A stretch of 64,000 bases of DNA, from the IMG/VR virus record IMGVR_UViG_3300045988_090210. One strand, given 5' to 3'. The stretch comes from a virus. A program made the translations under genes and the position numbers. Positions 2,790-16,253 of this stretch are shown here, piece after piece; position 1 is the stretch's first letter; every line of letters starts with the position of its first letter. The notes below the pieces were generated by a model. The model saw nothing but the letters and a program-made list of their open reading frames with translations. It ran no database searches and was not told the DNA's origin.

Positions 2790-3852
2790 AGAACTTAAGC
2801 AACAGCAACTCGCCCTTAAAAACAGTATTGATGAGCTAACTGTTCAGAATACTAAACTTGAACAAGAAAACCAGTCTTTCCAGTTCATTGCTACTGGATT
2901 TAATACTCTTGAAGAAGTTGGTTATGAGCGTTATGTTCCTACCACACCAAACGATATTCTTGAAGGTAAGATTTATGAGGCCGAAAACAAAATGGCAAGA
3001 ATGGCCGGTGAAGGCACTATTATCCAGTACAATAGGATTTATCGTATTGATGGGTCTGAGGCCAAGGGTAAGAAATTTCAAGAAGCATTTGGCAGAAATC
3101 TGTTTATTGGATTTAACACTTATGTCCAGACTAAAACCAAATCAATCACAGATGGGAATTATTATAATACCTGCGATTTAATCAAAAAGTCTTTTGACAA
3201 ATACAACAGGCAAGGCGAAATGTTAGGTATTAGTCTAAACCCATATTATCTTAATCTTCGCCTTGAAATCCTACAATATACACTTGAGTTAAAAATTAAA
3301 CAGGCCAAAGAAAAAGCCCAACTTCGTGAAGAGCGTAAGAGGATGCGAGAACAAGAAAAGTTGCTGGAAGAAATCGCCAAGGAACAAGAACAACTTGAAA
3401 AAGAACGCAAGTCTATGGATATTGCCTTTGCTAAGGCCCTAACAGAAGAAGAGCGGGAACTAATCAAGTCTAAAATGAGTGATATTGACAAGCGCATGAA
3501 TAACTTAAAATATCGCCGTGAACACAATAATGCTGGCTGGTTGTATGTAATTAGTTCGCCCAGTTTGCCTAATATGTGTAAAGTCGGTTGCACTCGCCGT
3601 CTTAATCCCACAATTCGTGTAAAGGAGCTTAGTTCAAGTTCTCTGCCTTACGCTTTCAGAACTCATGGTTTTGTGTTTAGTGATAATTGTTTCGAGCTTG
3701 AAACACAAATGCACCATTATTTTGATGACAAGCGCGTAGCTCCTGATAGAGAGTTCTTTTATATCACGCCACAAGAAGCGATTGATGTATTAAAGAATAA
3801 ATTTAATCAAGAAGTCCATTTTGAAGAAGAAAATATGGAGGATATTGTATGA
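2731..3852 (+). CDS. DUF4041 / T5orf172 (MUG113, GIY-YIG-like) domain protein with a coiled-coil N-terminal part
   Basis: The C-terminus GWLYVISSPSLPNMCKVGCTRRLNPTIRVKELSSSSLPYAF...REFFYITPQEA matches the T5orf172 pattern. The start was chosen at ATG 2731, which follows GGAAGGAAG, and it overlaps the upstream ORF by 59 nt. Confidence 0.6.
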   Translation: MLNFLKRLKTEKAEEEKKLKELKQQQLALKNSIDELTVQNTKLEQENQSFQFIATGFNTLEEVGYERYVPTTPNDILEGKIYEAENKMARMAGEGTIIQYNRIYRIDGSEAKGKKFQEAFGRNLFIGFNTYVQTKTKSITDGNYYNTCDLIKKSFDKYNRQGEMLGISLNPYYLNLRLEILQYTLELKIKQAKEKAQLREERKRMREQEKLLEEIAKEQEQLEKERKSMDIAFAKALTEEERELIKSKMSDIDKRMNNLKYRREHNNAGWLYVISSPSLPNMCKVGCTRRLNPTIRVKELSSSSLPYAFRTHGFVFSDNCFELETQMHHYFDDKRVAPDREFFYITPQEAIDVLKNKFNQEVHFEEENMEDIV

Positions 3853-4238
3853 TTGATAATGTTAATCACCCGTCTCATTATACCCAAGGCGGTATTGAGT
3901 GCATTGACGCTCTAAAAGCTGCAACAATTGGTAAGACAGGAATCGAAGCCGTATGTGTGGCCAATGTAATTAAGTATCTTTGGAGATATGAAGAAAAAAA
4001 CGGTTTAGAGGATGTAAAAAAAGCCCAATGGTACATCAAACGTCTAATTCAAGAGCTTGAATACAAGAAGGAAAATAACACTTTCTATGACACAGATGAT
4101 GTCGTTGGTGATTGTCTTGACTGTGCTAATTTTAATATGAACGCAGATTCTGAACCTTGTTGTAATTGCAAAAACACTGCTGTTCCCGGTACTCCTGAAT
4201 ACACTAGTCGTCCCTTACTGTTTAAGTGGCCCGATTAA
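3849..4238 (+). CDS. DUF3310 family protein (T7 gp1.7-like family)
   Basis: HPSHYTQGGIECIDALKA...NVIKYLWRY...LEDVKKAQWYIKRL pattern. Confidence 0.6.
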   Translation: MIDNVNHPSHYTQGGIECIDALKAATIGKTGIEAVCVANVIKYLWRYEEKNGLEDVKKAQWYIKRLIQELEYKKENNTFYDTDDVVGDCLDCANFNMNADSEPCCNCKNTAVPGTPEYTSRPLLFKWPD

Positions 4239-4247
4239 AATTTTCTA

Positions 4248-4276
4248 TTGACAAGGTAATCAAACTGTGCTATAAT
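4248..4276 (+). promoter_or_regulatory. Sigma-A type promoter
   Basis: TTGACA at 4248-4253, 17 nt, TGcTATAAT ending at 4276. Confidence 0.6.
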
Positions 4277-4298
4277 AGCTTTATAAAGGAGCGATATT

Positions 4299-4730
4299 AT
4301 GGCACAGTTTAACAACACAAAAATTATTAGATACTTGAAAATGGCGAAAGAGGCCAGTAAGCAGTCTAACTTTAAGCAACACCATCTTGGAGCTGTAGCA
4401 ATTTATAAAGGCAGTTTGCTGGCCACAGGCCATAACAGTACAAAGACCAATCCCCGACAGAAAGAACTTAACCGTGAACGCGGTTGGGATGTTGAAGCCA
4501 GCGATGCTCATAATACTGTCCATGCTGAGTGTGCTTGTTTGAGCAAGATTAGATACCTTGATATTGACTTTAGCAAGGTTAAGCTCTATGTTTATCGTGA
4601 ACATAAAAATGGAGTCAAAGCCCTTGCGAGGCCATGTCCAGCTTGTCAAAAGATGATTAAGGATATGGGGATTAAAGAGGTCTATTTCACGACAGAGAAT
4701 GGCTTTGGGTATGAATGGATGGAGGATTGA
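4299..4730 (+). CDS. dCMP / cytidine deaminase-fold zinc enzyme
   Basis: HAE (VHAECACL) and PCPAC zinc-ligand motifs at the spacing typical of dCMP deaminases. Confidence 0.75.
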   Translation: MAQFNNTKIIRYLKMAKEASKQSNFKQHHLGAVAIYKGSLLATGHNSTKTNPRQKELNRERGWDVEASDAHNTVHAECACLSKIRYLDIDFSKVKLYVYREHKNGVKALARPCPACQKMIKDMGIKEVYFTTENGFGYEWMED

Positions 4731-4909
4731 TGATGATTAACTTGGAGTCTTGTCCGTTTTGTGGTGGAGAAGTAATACTCGAAACATTAGAGGACAATAG
4801 CCCAGAAGGGTACTATATATACTGTCCAGAGTGTGATTTTGAAAGCGGCGTATATAGTGAACCCAAATTTATCGTCGAAAAGTGGAACAGGAGGGCTGAC
4901 AATGGCTGA
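4730..4909 (+). CDS. Lar-family restriction alleviation-like zinc-ribbon protein
   Basis: CPFCGG ... CPEC ... EKWNRRA pattern. Confidence 0.5.
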   Translation: MMINLESCPFCGGEVILETLEDNSPEGYYIYCPECDFESGVYSEPKFIVEKWNRRADNG

Positions 4910-5219
4910 GTATATCGAGCGGGAAGCGTTGATGCGCCGAATAAAAGAAATTCATTGTGCTGAGTGCGATAGCTACCACGGAGTAAGGTGCAGAGCGTGC
5001 TGGGTAGATGATACTTTGGTCTATATAGACAGCGAGCCAGCCGCTGATGTGGCCCCGGTGGTGCATGGCGAGTGGTTACTTCGTCACGAAGGGTACGGGC
5101 ATTATTGGGAATGTTCTTCATGCCATAAAAACCCGTGCATTTATGTGACAAAAGATACCAGATACTGCCCCAACTGCGGAGCGAAGATGGACGGAGGGGA
5201 CGACTATGCGAGTACCTAA
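4902..5219 (+). CDS. Cys-rich hypothetical protein with a C-terminal zinc ribbon
   Basis: MAEYIEREAL start. It has several CxxC pairs, including CPNCGAKM, and lies in a locally GC-rich segment. Confidence 0.5.
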   Translation: MAEYIEREALMRRIKEIHCAECDSYHGVRCRACWVDDTLVYIDSEPAADVAPVVHGEWLLRHEGYGHYWECSSCHKNPCIYVTKDTRYCPNCGAKMDGGDDYAST

Positions 5220-5430
5220 CTACATTCGCACCAAGATGCATCTATGCGCTTCACACGCCGCACAAGCTGCGAAGTATGACGCAGAAATTGGCATTTGGCT
5301 TGAGCAACACGATATTGACGCAGAAAGTATCAGCACTGGCGATGGTTCCTCATTTGAGGAATTGTTATACGGAAATGATGTGACTGATGAGCTGTGCAAT
5401 CGCATAGAGAAGATGATAATAAATACATAA
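5206..5430 (+). CDS. Hypothetical protein
   Basis: ORF overlaps the upstream stop. No recognisable motif. Confidence 0.4.
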   Translation: MRVPNYIRTKMHLCASHAAQAAKYDAEIGIWLEQHDIDAESISTGDGSSFEELLYGNDVTDELCNRIEKMIINT

Positions 5431-5502
5431 TCTGTTGTAGACTTGGCGTTGGTATGGAATTTGATGATTTTTGTTCTTATAGCGAGAGAAAGGACAAAGC
5501 CA

Positions 5503-5823
5503 ATGAATCTTGAATGGAATGTCTGGCGTAATGAGCTTAACACAGACAAAATTCAGCCATTTAATATTTTTAACCATTATAGCTTTAAAAAAGCCGTAAC
5601 AGATATTTTTTCCAAATCCTTCATGCACATGGACGAGTTTGAAGAAATGATAGACAAAGAGGCCATGTATTATTTCTGGTGTAAGGCTGAGTATGAGGTT
5701 ATGATTGGCGGTTTATTTGAGAGAGGACAAAAAACCAAGATTGATATTTATAGTCAATTAAAGTTGAATTGGGATAGGTTTATTGATTATTTGTGGAATG
5801 AATATATCAATAAAATAGACTAA
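5503..5823 (+). CDS. Hypothetical protein
   Basis: ATG at 5503 follows GAAAGGA. No recognisable motif. Confidence 0.45.
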   Translation: MNLEWNVWRNELNTDKIQPFNIFNHYSFKKAVTDIFSKSFMHMDEFEEMIDKEAMYYFWCKAEYEVMIGGLFERGQKTKIDIYSQLKLNWDRFIDYLWNEYINKID

Positions 5824-5835
5824 AGGAGAAAATGA

Positions 5836-7068
5836 ATGGATAAAATCTTTGAAATTATCAACAATGAACAAAAACGCCAAGACAACACAGTAGAACTTAT
5901 TGCTTCAGAGAACTTTGTCAGTGATAGAGTCAAACAGGCCGTTGGGTCTTGTATGATGCTCAAGTATACTGAGGGGTATCCTAGCAAAGAGAGTATCGCA
6001 AAGTTCCAAGAAAAATATCCTGATTATGTACATACTGGTAACATGGGTAGATATTATGGCGGGTGCGAGAATTTTGATGAGCTTGAATTGTATTGCCGCT
6101 ATATGTGGCAAAAAGTATTTAAGACTGATTACCATGTAAACGTTCAGCCCCACTCAGGCTCTTCTGCTAATATGGAAGTTTATGCCAGTGTACTTGAGCC
6201 GGGAGATACTGTGCTGAGTATGAGCCTTAATAATGGAGCGCATCTCACTCACGGCTCTCCTGTAAACTTTAGTGGCAAGTTGTACAACATGGTATTTTAT
6301 GGCGTAAACCAATATGGTCGAATTGACATTGATGACATCTATAACAAAGTCATTGCATACAAGCCTAAGATGGTGGTTGTTGGAGCGTCTGCGTATGCTA
6401 GAGCAATCCCTTATCATACCATCCGAACAATCATTGATTTGGCTGCAATGAAGGCTAATATTGACACACCCTATATGTTTGTGGATATGGCGCATATCGC
6501 TGGACTTATTGTCAGTGGCGACCATGAAAGCCCATTTGGTGTGGCTGACTTTATTACTACTACAACACAAAAGACGTTAAGAGGTAATAGAGGAGGCATT
6601 ATCTTTTGTAAGCCTGAATATGCAAAGAAAGTTGATAGCGCTGTGTTCCCCGGTAATCAAGGCGGTAGCCTAATGAATGAGATTGCTGGTAAAGCTGTAA
6701 CGGCTGATGAGGCACTAACGTCTGAATTTAAGGAATATGGACACCAGATTATCAAGAACGCCAAAGCTATGGCAGATGAGTTTATCAAGTTGGGATTTAA
6801 ACTGGTTACTGACGGCACAGATAACCACTTAATTTTGCTTGATTTGACTGACTTTGGTGTGAACGGCAAGCAGGTACAGGACGAACTTGATAAGTATGGT
6901 ATTACACTAAATAAGAATATGATTCCTAATGATCCAAGAAGTCCAGCCCAGACAAGCGGTGTACGGATTGGTGTTCCGGCCATGACAACAAAGGGCTGGA
7001 AGGAAGAGGATTTTATCAAGTGCGCTGATAAGATTGCTGAAATTATTAAAAACATGAAAACAGAGTAA
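5836..7068 (+). CDS. glyA: Serine hydroxymethyltransferase
   Basis: VELIASENFVS, YYGGCE, NVQPHSGSSAN, SPVNFSGKLY and TTTTQKTLRGNRGG (PLP-lysine region) are collinear with bacterial GlyA. Confidence 0.9.
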   Translation: MDKIFEIINNEQKRQDNTVELIASENFVSDRVKQAVGSCMMLKYTEGYPSKESIAKFQEKYPDYVHTGNMGRYYGGCENFDELELYCRYMWQKVFKTDYHVNVQPHSGSSANMEVYASVLEPGDTVLSMSLNNGAHLTHGSPVNFSGKLYNMVFYGVNQYGRIDIDDIYNKVIAYKPKMVVVGASAYARAIPYHTIRTIIDLAAMKANIDTPYMFVDMAHIAGLIVSGDHESPFGVADFITTTTQKTLRGNRGGIIFCKPEYAKKVDSAVFPGNQGGSLMNEIAGKAVTADEALTSEFKEYGHQIIKNAKAMADEFIKLGFKLVTDGTDNHLILLDLTDFGVNGKQVQDELDKYGITLNKNMIPNDPRSPAQTSGVRIGVPAMTTKGWKEEDFIKCADKIAEIIKNMKTE

Positions 7069-7073
7069 AGATT

Positions 7074-7106
7074 AAGAGGACTGAGAAATCAGCCCTCTTT
7101 TTTTAA
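7074..7106. terminator. Hairpin with T-run between convergent genes
   Basis: AAGAGG ... CCTCTT stem followed by TTTTTTT. It overlaps the 3' end of the minus-strand gene. Confidence 0.5.
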
Positions 7107-8027
7107 TTCTTCTGCTGTTGCGAAAACGGCCTTATGATATTTAATTAATTCTTCTACCAATTGTTCATTCATATCTTTTGGGATGGAGTTAAACCGCTTG
7201 CTTTTCAGATACCTATTGACTTGCATTTCATTGAACTCAGGGGCAAGGAACTTCACCATTCGATTAAGCTCTGAGGCCCTTGTGATAACAAAGGCTCTAG
7301 CGTATCTATCATAGCCTAACGTCTTAATATAATTAACCAAAGCCCTGTAATAGCCTTGCTGAATGATTTTGCTTTTGTTATACAATTCGCCAACATTCTT
7401 ACATCCGACCTTGTTCAAGTATTCAATACCAACCTGTAAGAACTGGGCTTCTTGCTCATCTGTTGCAAGTTCAGGTTTACTGGACACTGTATTGCCGTTG
7501 GGAAGTTTGATATGTTTATAAAATACATGGGTTTCTTTGATGCTGATTAATCGTCTATCACTTAGTTTCCTCAACGCGGCCTTAATCGCATATTCATCAT
7601 GGCTGTCGGCATTATCAAACCAAATCTTCTTTAGCGCCTCAGTAAGTTCGGCAGTATACTTATGAGATACTTTAATATTTAATTCTTTCTGGTAATACTT
7701 AACAGGAAAGTAGTTGGGGTTGACCATCATCAAATGCTCACGAATGTCACGATAAGTATAGACAGTTGTGCTGGCTTCACTCTCAGATAGGAATTGTAAT
7801 AATGTGGCCTGAAGAAAGTTAGCATAGTTTTTTCTATCTTTAATAACCTGAGATTCTTCTTTAGTTAGCTGGCCATGGATAATATATTTACCTCGGCCAA
7901 TCTTCTCTATATTATACTCTTCTTGTAATTTTTCAATATGAACTTTTCTATTATGCCCCCCTTTCTGTTCTTGTTCATTTAACTCTTGGCACAGCTCTGG
8001 ATAAGTTAATTCTTTTTCTTTGTTCAT
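7089..8027 (-). CDS. Hypothetical protein (312 aa), the only minus-strand gene in a plus-strand block
   Basis: Clean ORF with an AAAGGAG ribosome-binding site, its own promoter and a long palindrome-rich leader. Confidence 0.6.
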   Translation of the reverse strand: MNKEKELTYPELCQELNEQEQKGGHNRKVHIEKLQEEYNIEKIGRGKYIIHGQLTKEESQVIKDRKNYANFLQATLLQFLSESEASTTVYTYRDIREHLMMVNPNYFPVKYYQKELNIKVSHKYTAELTEALKKIWFDNADSHDEYAIKAALRKLSDRRLISIKETHVFYKHIKLPNGNTVSSKPELATDEQEAQFLQVGIEYLNKVGCKNVGELYNKSKIIQQGYYRALVNYIKTLGYDRYARAFVITRASELNRMVKFLAPEFNEMQVNRYLKSKRFNSIPKDMNEQLVEELIKYHKAVFATAEELKKEG

Positions 8028-8044
8028 GTGAAAGCTCCTTTCTT

Positions 8045-8162
8045 ATACCATTGGTATCAAAAATGAGAAGTGCAGCATAACGCTCTGCGTTTGCGTCCCG
8101 CCCCTATCTCAAATGGTATAAAAATTTCCTTAATAATTACTAAGGAAAAAGTTATACCATTT
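8045..8162 (-). promoter_or_regulatory. Leader of the 312-aa gene containing TGGTATA/TATACCA palindromes
   Basis: ATACCAtTGGTAT at 8045-8057 lies next to the ribosome-binding site. AAATGGTATAA at 8111-8121 is inverted as TTATACCATTT at 8152-8162, enclosing a TTCCTTA/TAAGGAA hairpin. Confidence 0.5.
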
Positions 8163-8190
8163 TGGTTTTATATCTGCTCTTCCACCTCTA

Positions 8191-8221
8191 CCATATTATC
8201 ACATCTTAACGCTATTGTCAA
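8191..8221 (-). promoter_or_regulatory. Sigma-A type promoter for the 312-aa gene
   Basis: Minus strand reads TTGACA, 17 nt, TGaTAATAT. Confidence 0.55.
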
Positions 8222-8261
8222 TATATATAAACATAAGTTAATAGATTGTTAATAATTATAT

Positions 8262-8356
8262 AAAGTGGTGGATAGAAGAAAAGAAAATGGATGTAATGAG
8301 ATAAAAGTGGGGATGAGATGATGAATTGTGAGGCTATTTGGGGTTAAAGTGGGGAT
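8262..8356 (+). repeat. Three AAAGTGG(T/G)GGAT repeats spaced exactly 42 bp apart in a C-poor tract
   Basis: Copies start at 8262, 8304 and 8346. The surrounding tract of about 125 nt is almost free of C. Confidence 0.7.
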
Positions 8357-8619
8357 TGTGTTGAGTTAGGCGGTTGTGTTGTGTGGGTACTACAAGGTGT
8401 TTCGCTTTCGCGCTTTAAAGCGTCATCCATAATCCACCCCGGCGGTGGGTTGACATAACGCTCTGCTGATAACATCAGTTATCCGCTAAAATGGCCAATT
8501 TTGAGAACTTTTTCAGGTAAAAAAATTTTTTGTTAGCACACCAACAATTTTGTGGATCTGAAAAAACACAAGACAAACATGCCTTATTAGGCGTGATTCT
8601 TGCGTTTGCAACACACAAC

Positions 8620-8950
8620 CACATCATACACTACCCATCTTCACATCACATCACACTAACAACCATATCCTTTATATCCTTCACACTTTACTCAACATCA
8701 CGCCATACAATCACCACAACTATTATATACTATATCAATACCATACAATACAGTTATCAAAACCATATTCAATCATATTATAAACCATATTTATATATCA
8801 TTCATACAACCATACAATCTATCAATCATTATCATATCATATAGTATTAAAGACTATAAAGACTATATCACCACCTACACCAGAACAATAATTATTATCA
8901 TATTTTATAATCATTATAACTATATCATATAATCTCAATCTCTATATAAT
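8620..8950 (+). repeat. G-depleted low-complexity tract with AACCATA repeats
   Basis: I counted about 5-7 G in roughly 330 nt. AACCATA occurs at 8661, 8761, 8783 and 8808, with variants. The track ORF 8530..8844 here is low-complexity and not credible as a gene. Confidence 0.7.
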
Positions 8951-8996
8951 ATAGTTTTGAAAATCATATTGAATCATACATTAGGCCGAAATTCCT

Positions 8997-9112
8997 ATAT
9001 TCATTTATTCATGGATATTCATTGAATATTCATATCAATATCAGAGCCAAAAGTGAATATCTGAACTTTTTAAGTGAATAAATGGCGAAAAGTTAATTAA
9101 ATCTATGAATAT
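8997..9112. repeat. Inverted array of ATATTCAT-type 8-mers
   Basis: Forward copies lie at 8997, 9005 (TTATTCAT), 9015 and 9026. Reverse copies (TGAATAT, TGAATAA, ATGAATAT) lie at 9054, 9075 and 9105. Confidence 0.65.
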
Positions 9113-9459
9113 CATAACGTTATAAATATACAAATCCAAGTTAAGGCGTTCAGAGTATAATTATAACCCCCATGCCTAAAAGCAAAACGTAACCGTTTAC
9201 CTTACGTTATAAGGGTGTTTTTGTGTGGTGGACATTTGTATGTAAATAGTATCATCACTATATCACATCATAAAATATATAGTTTACAAAGGCCAGGCGC
9301 AAGCCGCAGCCGTGTAAACAACTGGTGCGGGCGTTAGCAACCGCCCAATACTATAATATAGTATAAGATCTTTCATTCTCTTTTTTATTCCTATATTATA
9401 TATAAATAATATAATACAATATCACTAAAAATCTTTTAATATTTTAGTTATTTTGCCTA

Positions 9460-9487
9460 TTGCAATCTAAGCCAATATAGATATAAT
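9460..9487 (+). promoter_or_regulatory. Promoter of the CTATTGCAA class
   Basis: CCTATTGCAA provides the -35 (TTGCAA at 9460-9465), followed by 16 nt and TATAAT at 9482-9487. Confidence 0.5.
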
Positions 9488-9534
9488 AATAATCACAAGG
9501 CAAACGAAAAAGAATAGAATATCGGAGGTTTAAC

Positions 9535-9621
9535 ATGGACTGGAATACATTCTTTATTATTATTGGGGTTAGCACAATAAGTTATTATATTTGTAAGTTT
9601 TTATTTTGGTTGGATAAATAA
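9535..9621 (+). CDS. 28-aa hydrophobic peptide
   Basis: A GGAGG ribosome-binding site is followed by MDWNTFFIIIGVSTISYYICKFLFWLDK. It falls below the track length cut-off. Confidence 0.4.
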   Translation: MDWNTFFIIIGVSTISYYICKFLFWLDK

Positions 9622-9634
9622 GGAGGAAATAAAA

Positions 9635-9847
9635 ATGAAACTCTATGAACTGCCTGCACGTTATGACGCACGAAAGAGCTTTTACGGCAAGGCCCATGTT
9701 ATTGACTATGAAAACGGAACACTTGAATTACAAAGCTATAATACTATTGTTTCCCGTTGTGTTAATGGAAAAGTCGAAGAGTTGGGCAAGTGGAGCCAAA
9801 CCACAACAAGACATCAAAAAGAGTTTAGAAAGCAGTTTGAATATTAA
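9635..9847 (+). CDS. Small hypothetical protein (70 aa)
   Basis: AAGGAGG ribosome-binding site. Motifs are KSFYGKA, YNTIV and TTTRHQKEF. Confidence 0.55.
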   Translation: MKLYELPARYDARKSFYGKAHVIDYENGTLELQSYNTIVSRCVNGKVEELGKWSQTTTRHQKEFRKQFEY

Positions 9848-9860
9848 GGGGGGTTTGAAA

Positions 9861-10085
9861 ATGGAAAATATTTATTTCAGTTCGGATTACGATACTATAA
9901 ATAAACTGATAAAAAAGTATGGGGCGAAAGGTCTATTTACTACCGGAGAAAATGAAGATGGAGAAAGTATTATTATAACAATTTATTCTGATCGTATTAT
10001 TACAAAGACATTGCAAAAAAATAATTGGATGCGTATTAATACATATTGGGAAGATGGGAACATAGATGAGATCTATGAACGTTAA
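9861..10085 (+). CDS. Small hypothetical protein (74 aa)
   Basis: ATG at 9861 follows GGGGGG. Confidence 0.5.
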   Translation: MENIYFSSDYDTINKLIKKYGAKGLFTTGENEDGESIIITIYSDRIITKTLQKNNWMRINTYWEDGNIDEIYER

Positions 10086-10123
10086 GTTTATTAAATAATA
10101 GAGGAAAGAAAGAGGAGAGAAAA

Positions 10124-10357
10124 ATGACTGAAAGAATGACACAAAAAGAAATTAAACGTTTTGTTACTTTGGGTGTGGCCGAAGCTATTACTCGCCTATC
10201 CTTTGACGCTTGCAACGTTTTGAGAAAAGCACATAGTTTTACAACACTAAACGTTAGTATCGGCGTTTATGGTATGAATGGGGCATTGTTCCGTGATGAA
10301 AACAGCAAACTTTACGCTATTACTTCCAGAACGTCAACACTTTTTCAGATGGTATAA
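10124..10357 (+). CDS. Small hypothetical protein (77 aa) with a GVYGMNG motif
   Basis: GAGGAGAG ribosome-binding site. It shares a G-x-YG-x-N motif with the product of 11312..11644. Confidence 0.55.
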   Translation: MTERMTQKEIKRFVTLGVAEAITRLSFDACNVLRKAHSFTTLNVSIGVYGMNGALFRDENSKLYAITSRTSTLFQMV

Positions 10358-10369
10358 GGAGGCTTGAAA

Positions 10370-10606
10370 ATGAAATACTTGAAATACTTTTGGATTGCTG
10401 CTATTGTGCAGGAAAACGGGCGGCATTATGCTTTTACTTTCAGAGTATCCGAGAACGATAACTTAAAATGCCGGTTAGACGGTGTACAAAATTTATCTTC
10501 TGCAAATATTATGCCCACAAAGAAGGCCGCCCGCGATCTTGTCACTTTTTGGAATGATAGTTTCAAGGCAAATGGAACATATTTATTTGACAAGCCAGGT
10601 TTTTAA
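10370..10606 (+). CDS. Small hypothetical protein (78 aa)
   Basis: ATG at 10370 lies 8 nt after AAGGAGG. Confidence 0.5.
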   Translation: MKYLKYFWIAAIVQENGRHYAFTFRVSENDNLKCRLDGVQNLSSANIMPTKKAARDLVTFWNDSFKANGTYLFDKPGF

Positions 10607-10622
10607 AAAGGAGGGTTTACAA

Positions 10623-10808
10623 ATGCTTTTACGGAAAGATATTGAAGCCATTATGTCAACGCCTGAATTATGGCAAATGTTCCACGAGTTAGAAAAAGCA
10701 TACTCTACCAAAAGAAATAGCCCAGAGATGAACGCACGATATAAGGCCGCTTTTCAAGTGTTTCGTTCACAAGTAGAAAGGCAGAAAGGGCAGCCTATTC
10801 CGTTTTAA
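10623..10808 (+). CDS. Small hypothetical protein (61 aa)
   Basis: ATG at 10623 follows AAGGAGGG. Confidence 0.5.
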   Translation: MLLRKDIEAIMSTPELWQMFHELEKAYSTKRNSPEMNARYKAAFQVFRSQVERQKGQPIPF

Positions 10809-10821
10809 GGAGGTTTAGAAA

Positions 10822-10992
10822 ATGATTGTTTATGTAATTATGGGCGGGATGCAGTTTGGTTGCTGTGTTGATGATGTAAGCATCGAAGCAATTTACACAA
10901 GCAAGAAAAAAGCGGAAAAAGCAAGAGAAAACATAGTGAAAGAAAATAAATACCGGGATTATTGGATTGAAGAATGGGAAACGGAAAAATAA
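10822..10992 (+). CDS. Small hypothetical protein (56 aa)
   Basis: ATG at 10822 follows AAGGAGG. It falls below the track cut-off. Confidence 0.45.
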   Translation: MIVYVIMGGMQFGCCVDDVSIEAIYTSKKKAEKARENIVKENKYRDYWIEEWETEK

Positions 10993-11027
10993 CCAAAAAA
11001 CTTTCCAAATCTTGTGCAAAATGCCTA

Positions 11028-11056
11028 TTGCAAAAGCCTTTGGAATTTGATATCAT
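11028..11056 (+). promoter_or_regulatory. Promoter of the CTATTGCAA class
   Basis: CCTATTGCAA provides the -35 (TTGCAA at 11028-11033), followed by 17 nt and TGaTATCAT ending at 11056. Confidence 0.5.
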
Positions 11057-11059
11057 ATA

Positions 11060-11300
11060 ATCACCGAAAGGAACAAAAAACCTCAACAACTGAACACCGC
11101 CCGGAACCCGAAAGGGCTAAGGCCAAAAGCGCCGGGTCGAAAACTGAAAGAACGGAGCCACAGCCAACGACAGCCAGCCCAGAAGGGCCGATGGTGTGAC
11201 GCTCTGGTGGACAAAGATGGAAGGCCGTTCAATTAAGTAGAGGATTAACGGAAGTTACCACAAGGCTGAAAGTGGGAGAGGAACAAAACAATATTTTTTG
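11060..11300 (+). ncRNA. Candidate structured leader or ncRNA (T-poor, GNRA-hairpin rich)
   Basis: About 240 nt lie between the promoter and ATG 11312 with no credible ORF. GAAA loops occur in CCGAAAGG, CCCGAAAGGG, CTGAAAGA and CTGAAAGT contexts, a GCCC-AGAA-GGGC hairpin is present, and CCCGG/CCGGG helices enclose part of the region. Confidence 0.35.
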
Positions 11301-11311
11301 GAGGTTATATT

Positions 11312-11644
11312 ATGAAATACAAGACTACTACTAAGGCCCTTCGCGCTGGTTCTTGCAATCTTCGTTGTGCTGGTTATTGCGATTTGCAAAACCTCTTAAG
11401 AGCACATGATGCAAACGCATATACTTGCGGCATGTATGGCTGGAATTTTGATGTGTATGAAGTTTATGGTTTGACTATCTGCACGGGCTATCGTGGTATG
11501 CCGGGGAAACGGCTTGAAGGTATCGCAGAGTATGAGAAAAAAGCCGATGCTATCTGGGGCGATTATAATAGGCCGTATGAAGAACAGCGTGAAGAAGTTG
11601 AAAAGCTATTGCATGAGTTTTGCAAGGCCAACGGCGGTTATTAA
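11312..11644 (+). CDS. Small hypothetical protein (110 aa) with GYCDLQNLL and GMYGWNFDVY motifs
   Basis: GGAGG ribosome-binding site. It shares a motif with the product of 10124..10357. Confidence 0.55.
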   Translation: MKYKTTTKALRAGSCNLRCAGYCDLQNLLRAHDANAYTCGMYGWNFDVYEVYGLTICTGYRGMPGKRLEGIAEYEKKADAIWGDYNRPYEEQREEVEKLLHEFCKANGGY

Positions 11645-11660
11645 GAGAGGAGGAAAGAAC

Positions 11661-11873
11661 ATGAACGAATACAAGGACATTATTTCCGTTATCGTGCGGC
11701 ATGAAGGCGGGTACAGGGAGAAGGAAATTTGGAAAAAACCGCATACAATGGAACGAAGCGAAACGTGGAATAAATCCCACAAAGTTATAAACATTTTAGC
11801 GGCAGAACCAGAAGAAGATGGTTATTTTCCCGGTTTTGCGGTTGACCTTGTAACACGGTCTATTTGTGGCTAA
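11661..11873 (+). CDS. Small hypothetical protein (70 aa)
   Basis: ATG at 11661 follows AGAGGAGG. Confidence 0.5.
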   Translation: MNEYKDIISVIVRHEGGYREKEIWKKPHTMERSETWNKSHKVINILAAEPEEDGYFPGFAVDLVTRSICG

Positions 11874-11961
11874 AAAAGAAAGGAATAAAACAACCGGCTT
11901 TCTAAGGGATCTTGAGCCTGTCAAGCCCCATTCCAGAAATGTTTTTTAGGAGGTTTAAAAT

Positions 11962-12132
11962 ATGAACGCTTATAAAGTTAAACAGTTAAAAGAAATGCTT
12001 GCTTATGAAAAAGATTTGGTGAATGGTGGATATGGCGCACACTTGAGTTATAAAGGTAGCGAAGCCGCCTCTATTCAATTAGATGCGGGGGCGCTGGAAT
12101 TGCTTATTGTGTATTATTCACATTGTGGTTAA
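11962..12132 (+). CDS. Small hypothetical protein (56 aa)
   Basis: ATG at 11962 follows TAGGAGG. Confidence 0.45.
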   Translation: MNAYKVKQLKEMLAYEKDLVNGGYGAHLSYKGSEAASIQLDAGALELLIVYYSHCG

Positions 12133-12148
12133 AAGGAGGGTTAAAACA

Positions 12149-12295
12149 ATGTATTTGTTAGAACGTATTAGAGATGGTAGCGACTGGAAAAAGGGCGACA
12201 AAGTATGGAGCGATACAAAATTACCGGGATGGCGTGTCATTGAGTCAACCGGGAAAAAGAAAGAAAAAAAGAGAACAAAAGGAGAATATTATTAA
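12149..12295 (+). CDS. Small basic protein (48 aa)
   Basis: ATG at 12149 follows AAGGAGGG. Confidence 0.45.
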   Translation: MYLLERIRDGSDWKKGDKVWSDTKLPGWRVIESTGKKKEKKRTKGEYY

Positions 12296-12304
12296 AAAAA
12301 GATT

Positions 12305-12332
12305 AGAGGCTTTCGGGCCTCTTTTCTTTTTG
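12305..12332 (+). terminator. Rho-independent terminator
   Basis: AGAGGC-tttcgg-GCCTCT stem-loop followed by a T-run. Confidence 0.65.
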
Positions 12333-12536
12333 CCTATTACCTGTAAAAATCAATCAAAAACGGATCTACAATCGCTTCTGTATCGTCTGCCGTATGTTTT
12401 TACGTCTGACATTGGAATGGCTGTAAGGGGCCTTAAAATGGGCTATAGAGGCATTGCTAAAATAAGCCGTTGTTTTGTTGCTTTTGCAATAGTAGAAACG
12501 TCTAAAAATTTTTTGAGTTTTTGTATAGTTTGACTA

Positions 12537-12565
12537 TTGCAAAACGCTGTAAGATGTGGTATCTT
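12537..12565 (+). promoter_or_regulatory. Promoter of the CTATTGCAA class
   Basis: GACTATTGCAA provides the -35 (TTGCAA at 12537-12542), followed by 17 nt and TGgTATCTT ending at 12565. Confidence 0.45.
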
Positions 12566-12618
12566 ATAACCATAGCAAGGGAAACAACAACAAAGGCCAT
12601 AGGCCGGGAGGAACAAAA

Positions 12619-12786
12619 ATGAAACTGATAGTCGTAAATAGAAACAATATTGAATTAATCGCAAAAATTGAAGCGTTGGGGACATGGGAAGAAGAAAGAT
12701 ATATTGCTGATGAACATAACAGTTTTGACGTCTGGACATGGAATGGAAAAGCATATAAGATTTATAAAGACAGTAAAAGGATTTGA
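12619..12786 (+). CDS. Small hypothetical protein (55 aa)
   Basis: ATG at 12619 follows GGGAGGAAC. Confidence 0.45.
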   Translation: MKLIVVNRNNIELIAKIEALGTWEEERYIADEHNSFDVWTWNGKAYKIYKDSKRI

Positions 12787-12929
12787 AGGAGCTTCGGCCC
12801 CTTTTTCCTTTATCGCTTTAGCGATTTAAAGTGTAACGGTTTAGTTGATTAAATCACTAAATCAAAAAATTTTTCAAATTCCACGTAAATGAGCGTGTAA
12901 TTAAGTGTGTTTTTTAAATTTCCGGCGAT

Positions 12930-13330
12930 ATAGTATATATATGTATATAAATATATGTATATATGAATCTATATTGGATAAATGTGTAAGGTTTTGAATA
13001 TATGGATGGATCTTATATGGATAGATGGATAAATTTAATGGATTGTATAGAGGGGGTTGGATAAATGGATAGATGGGTGAATTTAACGCCATAGGCATGA
13101 ATTTAGATAGGTGGTTGTATATAGCTCAGTCAACGCATAAACCAATCCATGTGCAAAATTCTGTAGATATGTGGATAAGTTGATTGATGTTTGAATAGAT
13201 ATGTAGACGTATAGACAAATAGACAGATGGCCAAAGTTGATATGTAAACCCATCAACCTATTAATAAATACATACAAAATCGCCAAGCTGTGTATGAATA
13301 TATGTGTTTGTAGGCGTGGTTATGTCAATG
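12930..13330 (+). repeat. C-depleted low-complexity tract with GGATA(A/G)ATGG-type repeats
   Basis: TGGATAAATG, ATGGATGGAT, ATGGATAGATGGATAAAT, TTGGATAAATGGATAGATGGGTGAAT and GTGGATAAG occur within about 200 nt. C is scarce throughout. Confidence 0.65.
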
Positions 13331-13407
13331 TAAATATGACTGTTTTTGTATCTGTAAATGGTAATGTAGTTAATTGTGTAGATGCACATAAAAAATTTTT
13401 ATGTCTA

Positions 13408-13436
13408 TTGACAAAGCTAAACGGCTGTGCTATAAT
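13408..13436 (+). promoter_or_regulatory. Sigma-A type promoter
   Basis: TTGACA at 13408-13413, 17 nt, TGcTATAAT ending at 13436. Confidence 0.6.
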
Positions 13437-13513
13437 GGCTTCATAAAATAAAAATGTAAAACCATATGGAAATTTGATTTTTGTTTTTGAGTTAATGAGA
13501 ACGATTCCCATTT

Positions 13514-14753: not shown

Positions 14754-14829
14754 GGGAGGTTCATATAGTGGTCAAGTATGTACGACTTATAATCGTGTCA
14801 CAGGTGTTCGAATCACCTACCTCCTACCA
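14754..14829 (+). tRNA. tRNA-Ile with anticodon UAU and an encoded CCA end
   Basis: I folded this cloverleaf by hand. The acceptor is GGGAGGT/ACCTCCT (first pair G-U) and the D arm is ATAT/GTAT. The anticodon stem is TACGA/TCGTG with loop CTTATAA. The T arm is AGGTG-TTCGAAT-CACCT, followed by discriminator A and CCA. Confidence 0.8.
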
Positions 14830-15355
14830 GACCGCCTATTGGGGTTCTCGTGCGAAATATAAATAACGAAGTGGGATAATAAAGGTTGTAGAAGATGGGG
14901 GATGCGAAGCATCTTTCCAAATTCAAACCTCCCAACGGCTAAAATCAACTGACCCATAGTTGATGAAAGAGAACAAGGTCACATATCCCCATGAAAGTAG
15001 GATAGTGGGGCACACCAAGCAATCAAACATAGCCGAAGATGCGGAATGTGTGGTAGGGTGAAAGAGCTTTTGGCCAAAGCGTGTAGGTCATGTTTGATTG
15101 TGGAGAACGATAGCGCATGAGCTTGAGTTTTCCTTTGTATCCTTTCTGTTTTAGAAGGTGGCTCCTTCTATAATCCTCATACTCGCTACCTGTTGCCGTA
15201 GGTTGGATGAATAAAGGCGAGACTATATTGAACGAGGCTTCTCAAGGGTTGAGCCTATCAGCCCTATCCCAAAGCCATGTTCCCCATGGCATGGTTTACC
15301 TCCTATACTTCATAATATACTTCCATCACATGGCTCGAATTTGTTTAGAAAAAAC
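14830..15355 (+). ncRNA. Candidate large structured ncRNA (ROOL/GOLLD-like context)
   Basis: About 525 nt immediately 3' of the tRNA are ORF-free and relatively GC-rich. An 11-bp long-range helix pairs 15020-15030 with 15090-15100. Hairpins lie at 14901-14913 (GATGC-GAA-GCATC), 14944-14964, 15152-15170 and 15233-15256. The track ORF start at 15207 is an artefactual 5' extension of the recombinase gene. Confidence 0.4.
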
Positions 15356-15357
15356 TC

Positions 15358-15386
15358 TTGACAAGTTCGAGCCGTTGTGGTATCAT
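15358..15386 (+). promoter_or_regulatory. Sigma-A type promoter for the recombinase gene
   Basis: TTGACA at 15358-15363, 17 nt, TGgTATCAT ending at 15386. The GGCTCGAA/TTCGAGCC inverted repeat straddles the -35. Confidence 0.55.
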
Positions 15387-15413
15387 AAAGACAAATCAAA
15401 GGAGGCCAATAAA

Positions 15414-16253
15414 ATGATTGAGAGTTTTGTTAATTATATGAAAGCTGAGAAGATGTCTGAGAATACCATGCGTGGCTACACTAATCACATTAACCAAATG
15501 CTCAAGACCATTAACAAGCCTGAACAGGACATTACCTACCTTGACCTGATTGACTGGAAGGCTGGTATTGCTAATCAGGCCAGTGCAACGGTGGCCAATA
15601 AGGTTGCTGCTGTTCGGTCTTACTTTAAGTTTTTGACTGATGTTGGTGTGGTTGAGACTGACCCAAGCAAGAACCTCAAGCGCCCCAGCAACATCAAGAG
15701 TAAGGAAAAGCCCCGCATGACCGAGGAAGATGCAAGACAGCTTATCTCCTATGCTCGTACCCCTCGTGACAAGGCCATGTTCAGTTTCTTGCTTTCTACT
15801 GGTGTTCGGTTCTGTGAGATGGCCAATATCACCATTGATCAATATAAGAAGGCTATGGAGAACAACCGAGAGATTGAGTTGCCCGTAACCAAGGGTGATA
15901 AGGGCGGCAAGGTTTATATTAATCAGTCTACTGAACAGGCGATTGAGCGGTATTTGCGTCTGCGTGATGATGATTGCCCCTATCTGTTCGCTTCTTTCCA
16001 GAATCATCAACTAAGCGACAATAGCGTGTCTCAGACTATTAAATCTGCTGCTCGTAGGGCTGGATTGAGCTATTGGAATGAGCTTAGTTGCCATGGGTTG
16101 AGAGCCGGTTGTGCAACGATTATGAGTGATAAAGGTGTTCCAGTGGCCACTATTAGTAAGGTCTTACGTCATAGCTCGTTGGCTGTGACTACAAGATATA
16201 TCAAAGCAAATCAGGATAATGTCAATAATGCTACAGCATTGATGGAATTTTAA
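15414..16253 (+). CDS. Tyrosine recombinase (XerC/D-like, comparable to SPbeta YopP)
   Basis: ATG at 15414 follows AAAGGAGG. The N-terminal SAM-like domain reads FVNYMKAEKMSENTMRGY. The catalytic signature is TGVRFCEM, HGLRAGCAT and LRHSSLAVTTRY. Confidence 0.85.
   Translation: MIESFVNYMKAEKMSENTMRGYTNHINQMLKTINKPEQDITYLDLIDWKAGIANQASATVANKVAAVRSYFKFLTDVGVVETDPSKNLKRPSNIKSKEKPRMTEEDARQLISYARTPRDKAMFSFLLSTGVRFCEMANITIDQYKKAMENNREIELPVTKGDKGGKVYINQSTEQAIERYLRLRDDDCPYLFASFQNHQLSDNSVSQTIKSAARRAGLSYWNELSCHGLRAGCATIMSDKGVPVATISKVLRHSSLAVTTRYIKANQDNVNNATALMEF

Follow-up and report, generated by a model that had tools for sequence, protein, structure and literature searches.

A mosaic island of small genes with an uncharacterised conserved core in an SPbeta-like phage: a plausible early accessory or counter-defence locus

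The stretch of DNA analysed here, a 64-kb viral sequence (IMG/VR record IMGVR_UViG_3300045988_090210, hereafter the window), carries an island of twelve small genes (g1–g12) flanked by two regions free of open reading frames (ORFs). As judged by sequence comparison with close relatives, the island is a mosaic in which a conserved core stands amid cassettes that were gained, lost and replaced. A membrane-type peptide (g1), a DUF8033 protein (g2), a member of a large uncharacterised family (g8) and the protein encoded next to it (g9) form this core. The island may plausibly have an early accessory role or one in counter-defence. In our best explanation, which as a whole we consider evenly poised between right and wrong, the region would be a hypervariable accessory island of a temperate, SPbeta-like phage of 80–100 kb from gut Clostridia; it would be read early by the host, its products would probably be binding proteins, and counter-defence or host manipulation would be their most likely task.

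The mosaic structure became apparent from an alignment with the relative L011 (85.7 kb, ~85% identical to the window). Common to both are the left ORF-free region, promoter P1, g1, g2, g6, promoter P2, g8, g9, g11, terminator T1, the spacer behind it, promoter P3 and the right ORF-free region. Specific to the window were g3, g4, g5, g7, g10, g12 and a 210-nucleotide (nt) insertion in a leader; in L011 the slots of these genes are occupied by other small genes. Most breakpoints fell at junctions between stop codon and Shine-Dalgarno sequence, and some coincided with P2, T1 or P3. By blastn, the coding segments g1–g2, g6 and g8–g9 were 76–86% identical to L011 and g11 91.5%, and the alignment through T1, the spacer and P3 (12290–12630) reached 93%. 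In ten more relatives, reached via DUF8033, g2 was the only gene shared, joined in half of them by g8. A separate observation concerns the protein P0484, a natural chimera that joins an N-terminal half related to g4 to a C-terminal DUF8033 half; such a fusion, as read from its two halves, shows illegitimate recombination between island genes.

All twelve convincing genes lie on the plus strand and encode products of 28–110 amino acids (aa). Each begins with ATG, 5–10 nt past a GGAGG-type ribosome site, and 11 of them end with TAA. Most neighbouring genes are 12–16 nt apart, and at five junctions the stop codon is nested within TAAGGAGG / TAAGGGGG, a layout that would be suited to coupled, efficient translation. 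The third-codon-position bias of substitutions relative to L009 and L011 supported the coding nature of g2, g6, g8, g9 and g11. For g1, the corresponding support comes from a gene for a small hydrophobic peptide at the same position in L011, L009, L008 and L106. The island had been described from the sequence alone as thirteen tightly packed ORFs. Their small size, their GGAGG-type sites and their tight packing were borne out, and the number came to twelve: a thirteenth candidate (31 aa, 12438–12533) was rejected because of its poor ribosome site, its overlap with the −35 box of P3 and the mostly non-synonymous changes in L011. The island heads a rightward gene block that runs into the replication genes.

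The core opens with g1 (9535–9621, +), a 28-aa hydrophobic peptide of membrane type with a GGAGG site and an ATG start, which resembles the peptide preceding DUF8033 or g8 in the four relatives named above. It is followed by g2 (70 aa, 9635–9847, +), a DUF8033 protein that matched phrog_4264 (E 5e-21). The assignment to PF26096 stems from precomputed tables, in which it covers a protein identical to g2 and 120 homologues; the Pfam search run here gave no g2 match. The g2 family comprises 773 clusters and displays conserved basic and polar motifs (RKSFYGKA, SYxT and TTxRH). An AlphaFold2 (AF2) model with a predicted local distance difference test (pLDDT) score of 75.5 showed five strands and a helix. 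The hub of the core is g8 (110 aa, 11312–11644, +), whose family numbers 1379 clusters when grouped at 90% identity and, at 50%, 1128 representatives (E <= 1e-3). Its AF2 model (pLDDT 82.7) has a helix at the N terminus, a small sheet, and a helical hairpin at the C terminus. Every match of g8 in BFVD was an uncharacterised phage protein, a tblastn search against phages yielded three weak matches, none of them SPO1, and no g8 relatives were found in PLSDB plasmids. Cysteines and a histidine of g8 are invariant among close relatives. Since they are not conserved across the wider family, a metal site is unlikely. Its partner g9 (70 aa, 11661–11873, +) adjoins g8 in L009, L011, L016 and L047, and the g8 domain and g9 are fused in the 186-aa protein P0169, a fusion seen on three independent contigs (E 2e-28 and 3e-23).

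The association between DUF8033 and g8 extends well beyond the window. A DUF8033 gene was present in 52 of 88 g8-bearing loci, always on the same strand (52/52), upstream of g8 in 49 cases and within 203 nt in 46; with hidden Markov models (HMMs), DUF8033 was detected in 63 of 114 such loci. The pair also occurs in unrelated 45-kb siphoviruses with an SPP1-type portal and a D5-type primase. In the window, g2 and g8 stand 1468 nt apart, pushed away from each other by g3–g7, P2 and the leader insertion. Furthermore, one of the variable cassettes turned out to be related to the hub. Two products had been noted to share a G-x-YG-x-N motif, and both forms, GVYGMNG and GMYGWNF, were indeed present. 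The shared motif can be explained by the fact that g4 (77 aa, 10124–10357, +; 94 clusters, confined to this phage group) is a short remote paralogue of the N-terminal domain of g8: profile–profile comparison of g4 with the g8 family by hhalign gave a probability of 88% (E 3e-6), while the homology was not significant by BLASTP (E 0.055) or with the g8-family HMM alone (E 0.32). DUF8033 itself was also considered as a relative of g8 or g4 and discarded for lack of any signal.

The genes are organised behind three promoters, all of which carry CTATTGCAA. Exact copies of this motif number four in the 64 kb, against 1.2 expected, and all four lie inside the island: at 9457, 11025 and 12534 on the plus strand and, inverted, at 12492 on the minus strand. 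Each plus-strand copy is located 16–17 nt upstream of a −10 box, with an extended TG in two of three. P1 (9457–9487, +) combines CTA-TTGCAA with a 16-nt spacer and TATAAT; P2 (11025–11056, +) has CTA-TTGCAA, a 17-nt spacer and TG-n-TATCAT; and P3 (12534–12565, +) has CTA-TTGCAA, a 17-nt spacer and TG-n-TATCTT. Both P1 and P3 are conserved in L011. The three align over ~95 nt, including an upstream A/T block, both hexamers and a common leader (ATAAYCA..AAGGnAAAC), with an anchored identity of 0.49–0.63; the other promoter pairs of the window averaged 0.40 and reached at most 0.52. At orthologues of P1 we found TTGACA in L009, L008 and L016, TTGCAA without CTA in L106 and L107, and TTGCAA in L011, and at orthologues of P2 TTGTAA (L009), TTGAAA (L011) and TTGACA (L008). 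Outside the island, the CTA context recurs in front of promoters with a consensus TTGACA, at 4245, 13405 and 14677. From the ~95-nt alignment, the varying −35 boxes of the orthologues and the CTA outside the island, we conclude that P1–P3 are cassettes of sigma-A type, paralogous to one another and weakened in the −35 box, and not a new promoter type.

This result bears on the sequence-only reading, which had assigned the promoters to a private class: the shared −35 context stood, the private class did not. A private regulon, in which a factor specific to the phage recognises CTATTGCAA and reads or controls the promoters, would account for the confinement of all exact copies to the island, for the closer resemblance within P1–P3 than within other promoter pairs, for the recurrence of TTGCAA at P1 of L011, L106 and L107, and for the inverted copy 41 nt upstream of P3. 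We nevertheless regard it as very unlikely, given the TTGACA, TTGTAA or TTGAAA boxes at orthologous promoters, the CTA context at consensus promoters beyond the island, the standard sigma-A spacing and −10 boxes, two of them with extended TG, and the lack of conservation of the inverted copy in L011. A minus-strand promoter for an antisense RNA at 12492 was likewise dismissed owing to a poor −10 box and a motif that is not conserved in L011. Transcripts would end at T1 (12305–12322), a strong bidirectional intrinsic terminator (−17.5 kcal/mol, z-score −3.55) that is identical in L011. A terminator and fold scan found no terminator in the interval between g7 and P2, and the hairpin after g12 was weak. 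The arrangement of these signals indicates that P1 and P2 drive g1–g11, with transcripts ending at T1, and that P3 drives g12.

Judged from its encoded proteins, the window belongs to a large tailed phage. The plus strand codes for a DNA polymerase III alpha subunit, DnaB- and RecD-type helicases, a RecJ-like nuclease, an anaerobic ribonucleotide reductase (NrdD) and an integrase, and the minus strand for a tape-measure protein and an amidase lysin. At 1–2050 (−), we identified part of an RNA polymerase of the YonO type, a two-barrel, single-chain enzyme (PF05183, E 1.3e-13). An exact-protein look-up located an identical g8 protein on ~81 kb contigs with the same genes and a YorF homologue. 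On the basis of the YonO-type RNA polymerase, the shared gene set and the YorF homologue, we class the phage by its predicted proteins as SPbeta-like in gene content, and the YonO fragment as the mark of an SPbeta-like transcription strategy. In SPbeta, YonO is the polymerase specifically for the late structural and lysis genes (PMC5467207). The host is probably a gut member of the Clostridia, since g8 relatives are present in genomes of Dorea, Eubacteriaceae, Lachnospiraceae and Oscillospiraceae. The phage has an overall GC content of 38%, and a blastn search against INPHARED found no cultured phage similar at the DNA level. The integrase sits 2.4 kb downstream of the island; the gene is of the tyrosine type (15207–16253) and is directly preceded by a tRNA-Ile (anticodon TAT, 14754–14829).

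A link to counter-defence emerged from the relatives of g8. The g8 relative P0188 possesses a C-terminal AcrIC5 domain (PF22147; 42.6 bits, cut-off 27), a gene with an AcrIC5 domain lies directly upstream of the g8–g9 fusion gene on two contigs, and AcrIC5-like ORFs were found 3–4.5 kb from g8 in L086 and L088. AcrIC5 is a validated type I-C anti-CRISPR protein with orthologues in Firmicutes (PMC7913775). Another association is that of the island itself with a Lar-like restriction-alleviation gene 4.5 kb upstream. A further candidate marker, DUF3849 as a sign of conjugative-element polyvalent proteins, was not used: the match of P0207 reached 24.3 of the 25 bits needed, and the paper on polyvalent proteins does not mention DUF3849.

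Several findings weigh against an anti-defence function. The fusion of AcrIC5 to g8 in P0188 is known from one 1.9-kb low-coverage contig, and fusion or adjacency amounts to four contexts in ~114 g8 loci, none of them in the window and with no background rate for comparison. No island protein resembled a known anti-defence, defence or host-takeover protein in Pfam, PHROGs, NCBIfam or PADLOC. The sequence-only reading had proposed structure prediction and Foldseek as a way to reveal anti-defence folds; run for g2 and g8, the two of the twelve proteins that were modelled, this gave no PDB fold match (best template modelling (TM) score 0.46 for g2 and 0.33 for g8, E > 0.01 in both cases), nor did either sequence match a PDB entry. 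The core genes are 70–92% identical across many phages, with mostly synonymous changes; most anti-defence genes, unlike these, evolve fast. In the siphoviruses, moreover, the DUF8033–g8 pair adjoins a small-terminase-like gene and the packaging module and not an early locus. Because no known protein is matched, and because early expression of the island is inferred from promoter sequence only, the anti-defence reading stays unproven, a case of guilt by association. What had been put forward as an anti-defence or host-takeover module is thus upheld as a distinct accessory island with fast turnover and with g8–AcrIC5 links elsewhere, and not as a carrier of any known anti-defence protein.

In the scenario that we favour, host RNA polymerase with sigma-A would start at P1–P3 once the DNA becomes accessible, upon infection or induction, and transcription of the island would precede the takeover of late genes by the phage's YonO-type polymerase. 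Messages from P1 and P2 would run through g1–g11 to T1 and a separate message from P3 would cover g12, and the nesting of stop codons and Shine-Dalgarno sequences would allow translation to be coupled and efficient. The products are small, have a single domain and show no catalytic signature; they would probably bind factors of the host or of competitors. The g8 domain might be a hub for joint action with DUF8033 and g9, one to which AcrIC5-like domains have been attached in other phages, while recombination at the repeated junctions and at the promoter cassettes would bring new cassettes in and take others out. A bolder version, in which DUF8033, the g8 family and g9 constitute an undescribed, widespread module that neutralises an immune system of gut Clostridia, with g8 as the hub onto which inhibitor domains are grafted, we put forward as a tentative possibility.

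The conservation of the core can also be explained without host defences. DUF8033, g8 and g9 might serve the phage's own biology, as DNA-binding or regulatory proteins or as accessories of replication or packaging, and genes of conflict would then be limited to the cassettes around them. High conservation under purifying selection agrees with this proposal, as does the siphovirus pair, which has a GP3_package-like gene on one side and the genes for terminase and portal on the other, and the basic and polar motifs of DUF8033 are in our judgement compatible with nucleic-acid binding. Each gene, however, also occurs solo, with at least 51 of 114 g8 loci lacking DUF8033 and five DUF8033 loci lacking g8; the genes are patchy among related phages, their location varies by lineage, and g8 is linked to AcrIC5-like domains. 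We therefore consider such a role unlikely. A temperate phage with an integrase 2.4 kb downstream of the island could alternatively carry these genes as morons or lysogenic-conversion genes, expressed from the prophage for the benefit of the lysogen, for example in superinfection exclusion, and not early in the lytic cycle. The host-type promoters, the self-contained unit of P3 and g12, the insulation of units by T1 and the membrane peptide g1 would all suit this purpose. Eleven of the twelve products, on the other hand, lack the membrane or secretion features often seen in exclusion and conversion factors, and the island heads the rightward block leading into replication genes, which makes a lysogenic role rather unlikely. 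As DUF8033 and g8 are small, adjacent and co-directional, usually < 120 nt apart, and patchy in prophages, they might finally be a phage-carried toxin–antitoxin or abortive-infection pair. This is extremely unlikely: in the window 1468 nt separate them and P2 directly precedes g8, either partner stands alone in many loci so that co-occurrence is not obligate, and PADLOC returned no match. The early accessory island with counter-defence or host manipulation as its most likely task is hence the explanation that we retain.

The remaining island genes are mostly variable cassettes. The product of g3 (74 aa, 9861–10085, +) had no family match; none of the fetched relatives carried the gene, and its cluster at 90% counts 58 members. 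Homologues of g5 (78 aa, 10370–10606, +), 40–50% identical, lie beside g8 relatives in L035, L036, L051, L059 and L075. The L011 copy of g6 (61 aa, 10623–10808, +) showed 79% amino-acid identity and third-position bias. A DUF7336 protein is encoded by g7 (56 aa, 10822–10992, +; Pfam PF24024, E 5.9e-9), a cassette absent from L011, and g10 (56 aa, 11962–12132, +) is a cassette absent from both L011 and L009. The product of g11 (48 aa, 12149–12295, +) has a lysine-rich tail and is 96% identical in L011, with seven synonymous and two non-synonymous codon changes. Behind P3, g12 (55 aa, 12619–12786, +) forms a single-gene unit, in place of which L011 carries three other genes. The same 50-residue stretch of g12 weakly matched the RosmerTA antitoxin RmrA (E 0.0016) and the spr1629 repressor/antitoxin family (E 0.0075), with scores far below the family thresholds in both libraries; g12 is a possible antitoxin mimic. 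The idea that g12 is a captured piece of a 378-aa antitoxin was abandoned, as the 378-aa members of its 90% cluster are unrelated luciferase-like oxidoreductases, a clustering artefact. For at least nine of the twelve island proteins there was no PHROG, and the PHROG families of g2 and g7 are of unknown function. Apart from the DUFs of g2 and g7, searches of the island proteins in Pfam, PHROGs, NCBIfam and PADLOC gave nothing informative, and a literature search on DUF8033, DUF7336 and their PHROG and Pfam accessions found nothing. Membrane or secretion features were absent from all products of the island save one.

The non-coding regions within and around the island are in part conserved, and those on its flanks show extreme strand asymmetry (8200–8900 and 12900–13330). 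The left ORF-free region (8028–9456) is AT-rich, contains degenerate repeats and is 83–87% identical to L011; its plus strand is G-rich at 8200–8400 and C-rich at 8530–8900. Around a GC-richer, hairpin-rich centre (8400–8530), the GC skew passes from +0.68 (8200–8400) to −0.84 (8600–8800), and on the right flank a skew of +0.68 recurs at 12900–13100. The right ORF-free region (12787–13513), G-rich and C-poor on the plus strand and 78% identical to L011, ends at a consensus promoter (13408). An origin or a non-coding transcript in these flanks would be a guess. The bracketing of the island by ORF-free stretches, as noted earlier from the sequence, was correct for both sides; they are degenerate low-complexity tracts, however, and not regular arrays.

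The leader of P2 contains the 210-nt insertion (11082–11291, +), which has 51% GC, is T-poor and is flanked on either side by imperfect 16-nt direct repeats with GGAACAAAA. In L009 and L011 this leader measures ~45 nt and lacks the insertion, which was unique to the window among the fetched loci; exact scans with 22–25-mers detected no other copies in viral and metagenome collections. We had considered a structured RNA in the 270-nt leader and rejected it, because folding was no better than for shuffled sequences (z-score −0.42), Rfam gave no match and the relatives revealed an insertion instead. In L117 (1152–1499), a 349-nt GC-richer non-coding stretch precedes a g8–g9 fusion gene; its sequence is unrelated to the insertion. 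The conserved non-coding spacer between T1 and P3 (12323–12533) includes the inverted CTATTGCAA (12484–12492) and may be a regulatory region.

Upstream of the island lies a plus-strand cluster for nucleotide metabolism and anti-restriction (3849–7068) that encodes a DUF3310 protein, a dCMP deaminase, a Lar-like protein and a serine hydroxymethyltransferase. The Lar-like restriction-alleviation gene (4733–4909; phrog_599, E 1e-11) is located 4.5 kb upstream of the island. This cluster, just upstream of the island, suggests to us the possibility of modified DNA bases in this phage. Divergent from the island, a gene for a 312-aa protein (7089–8027, −) has tblastn homologues in L009 and L011, and relatives fetched via DUF8033 possess a 328-aa gene at the same place and on the same strand. 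Its leader (8040–8165) contains a 52-nt near-perfect palindrome (8111–8162) and TATACCATTGGTATC. We regard the 312-aa gene product as a candidate regulator of this switch region; a YopR-like repressor was also considered and discarded after Pfam, PHROGs, INPHARED and PDB had given no match.

To our knowledge, phages of gut Clostridia are abundant, have received almost no experimental study, and have a counter-defence repertoire that is essentially unknown. Our analysis provides specific candidates, namely the DUF8033–g8–g9 module, which has relatives in the thousands, lacks a known fold and is linked to an anti-CRISPR domain, and a set of delimited, swappable cassettes. If the module does act in counter-defence, the system would be both new and very common, and if it neutralises host immunity, the variable slots would be a rich source of further counter-defence genes. 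If it does not, the island still shows cleanly how, in a Firmicutes phage, cassettes turn over at stop/Shine-Dalgarno junctions and at promoter cassettes that are repeated.

Among known systems, SPO1's module for host takeover (PMC6873191) resembles the island in its clustered, mostly small genes, its several short operons and its residence in a Firmicutes phage of large size. A further likeness lies in strong early promoters of host type and in strong ribosome sites, read for the island from sequence alone. The SPO1 module is defined by products that are expressed within the first minutes of infection and are toxic or halt the macromolecular synthesis of the host. No homology to gp37–gp60 was found (blastn against INPHARED, PHROGs and tblastn with g8), and the island phage, in contrast, is a temperate, SPbeta-like one in our best explanation. 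Phage anti-CRISPR (acr) loci likewise consist of small, dense and quickly exchanged genes behind early promoters, and g8 is tied elsewhere to an AcrIC5-like domain. They differ from the island, in which a Pfam search found no Aca-type helix-turn-helix regulator and which has no homologue of a validated anti-defence protein; its g8 relatives are missing from PLSDB plasmids, and its core is far more conserved than typical Acr proteins. The hyperplastic regions of T4-type phages with their promoter-early stem-loop cassettes (PeSLs; PMC2839356, PMC4122927) share with the island orphan small genes amid repeated sigma-70-type promoter cassettes, as well as close relatives that differ by gene cassettes inserted, deleted or replaced between regulatory landmarks that are conserved. 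The island, however, has only three promoter copies of 49–63% identity, a single one of which is paired with a terminator, at a distance of 210 nt and with T1 not fused to the promoter. Moreover, most of its breakpoints lie at stop/Shine-Dalgarno junctions and not at promoters, and there is no evidence of mini-circles, so that it agrees with the PeSL definition only in part. Taken together, the island is probably an early accessory island, of a kind already known, that houses an uncharacterised DUF8033–g8–g9 module.

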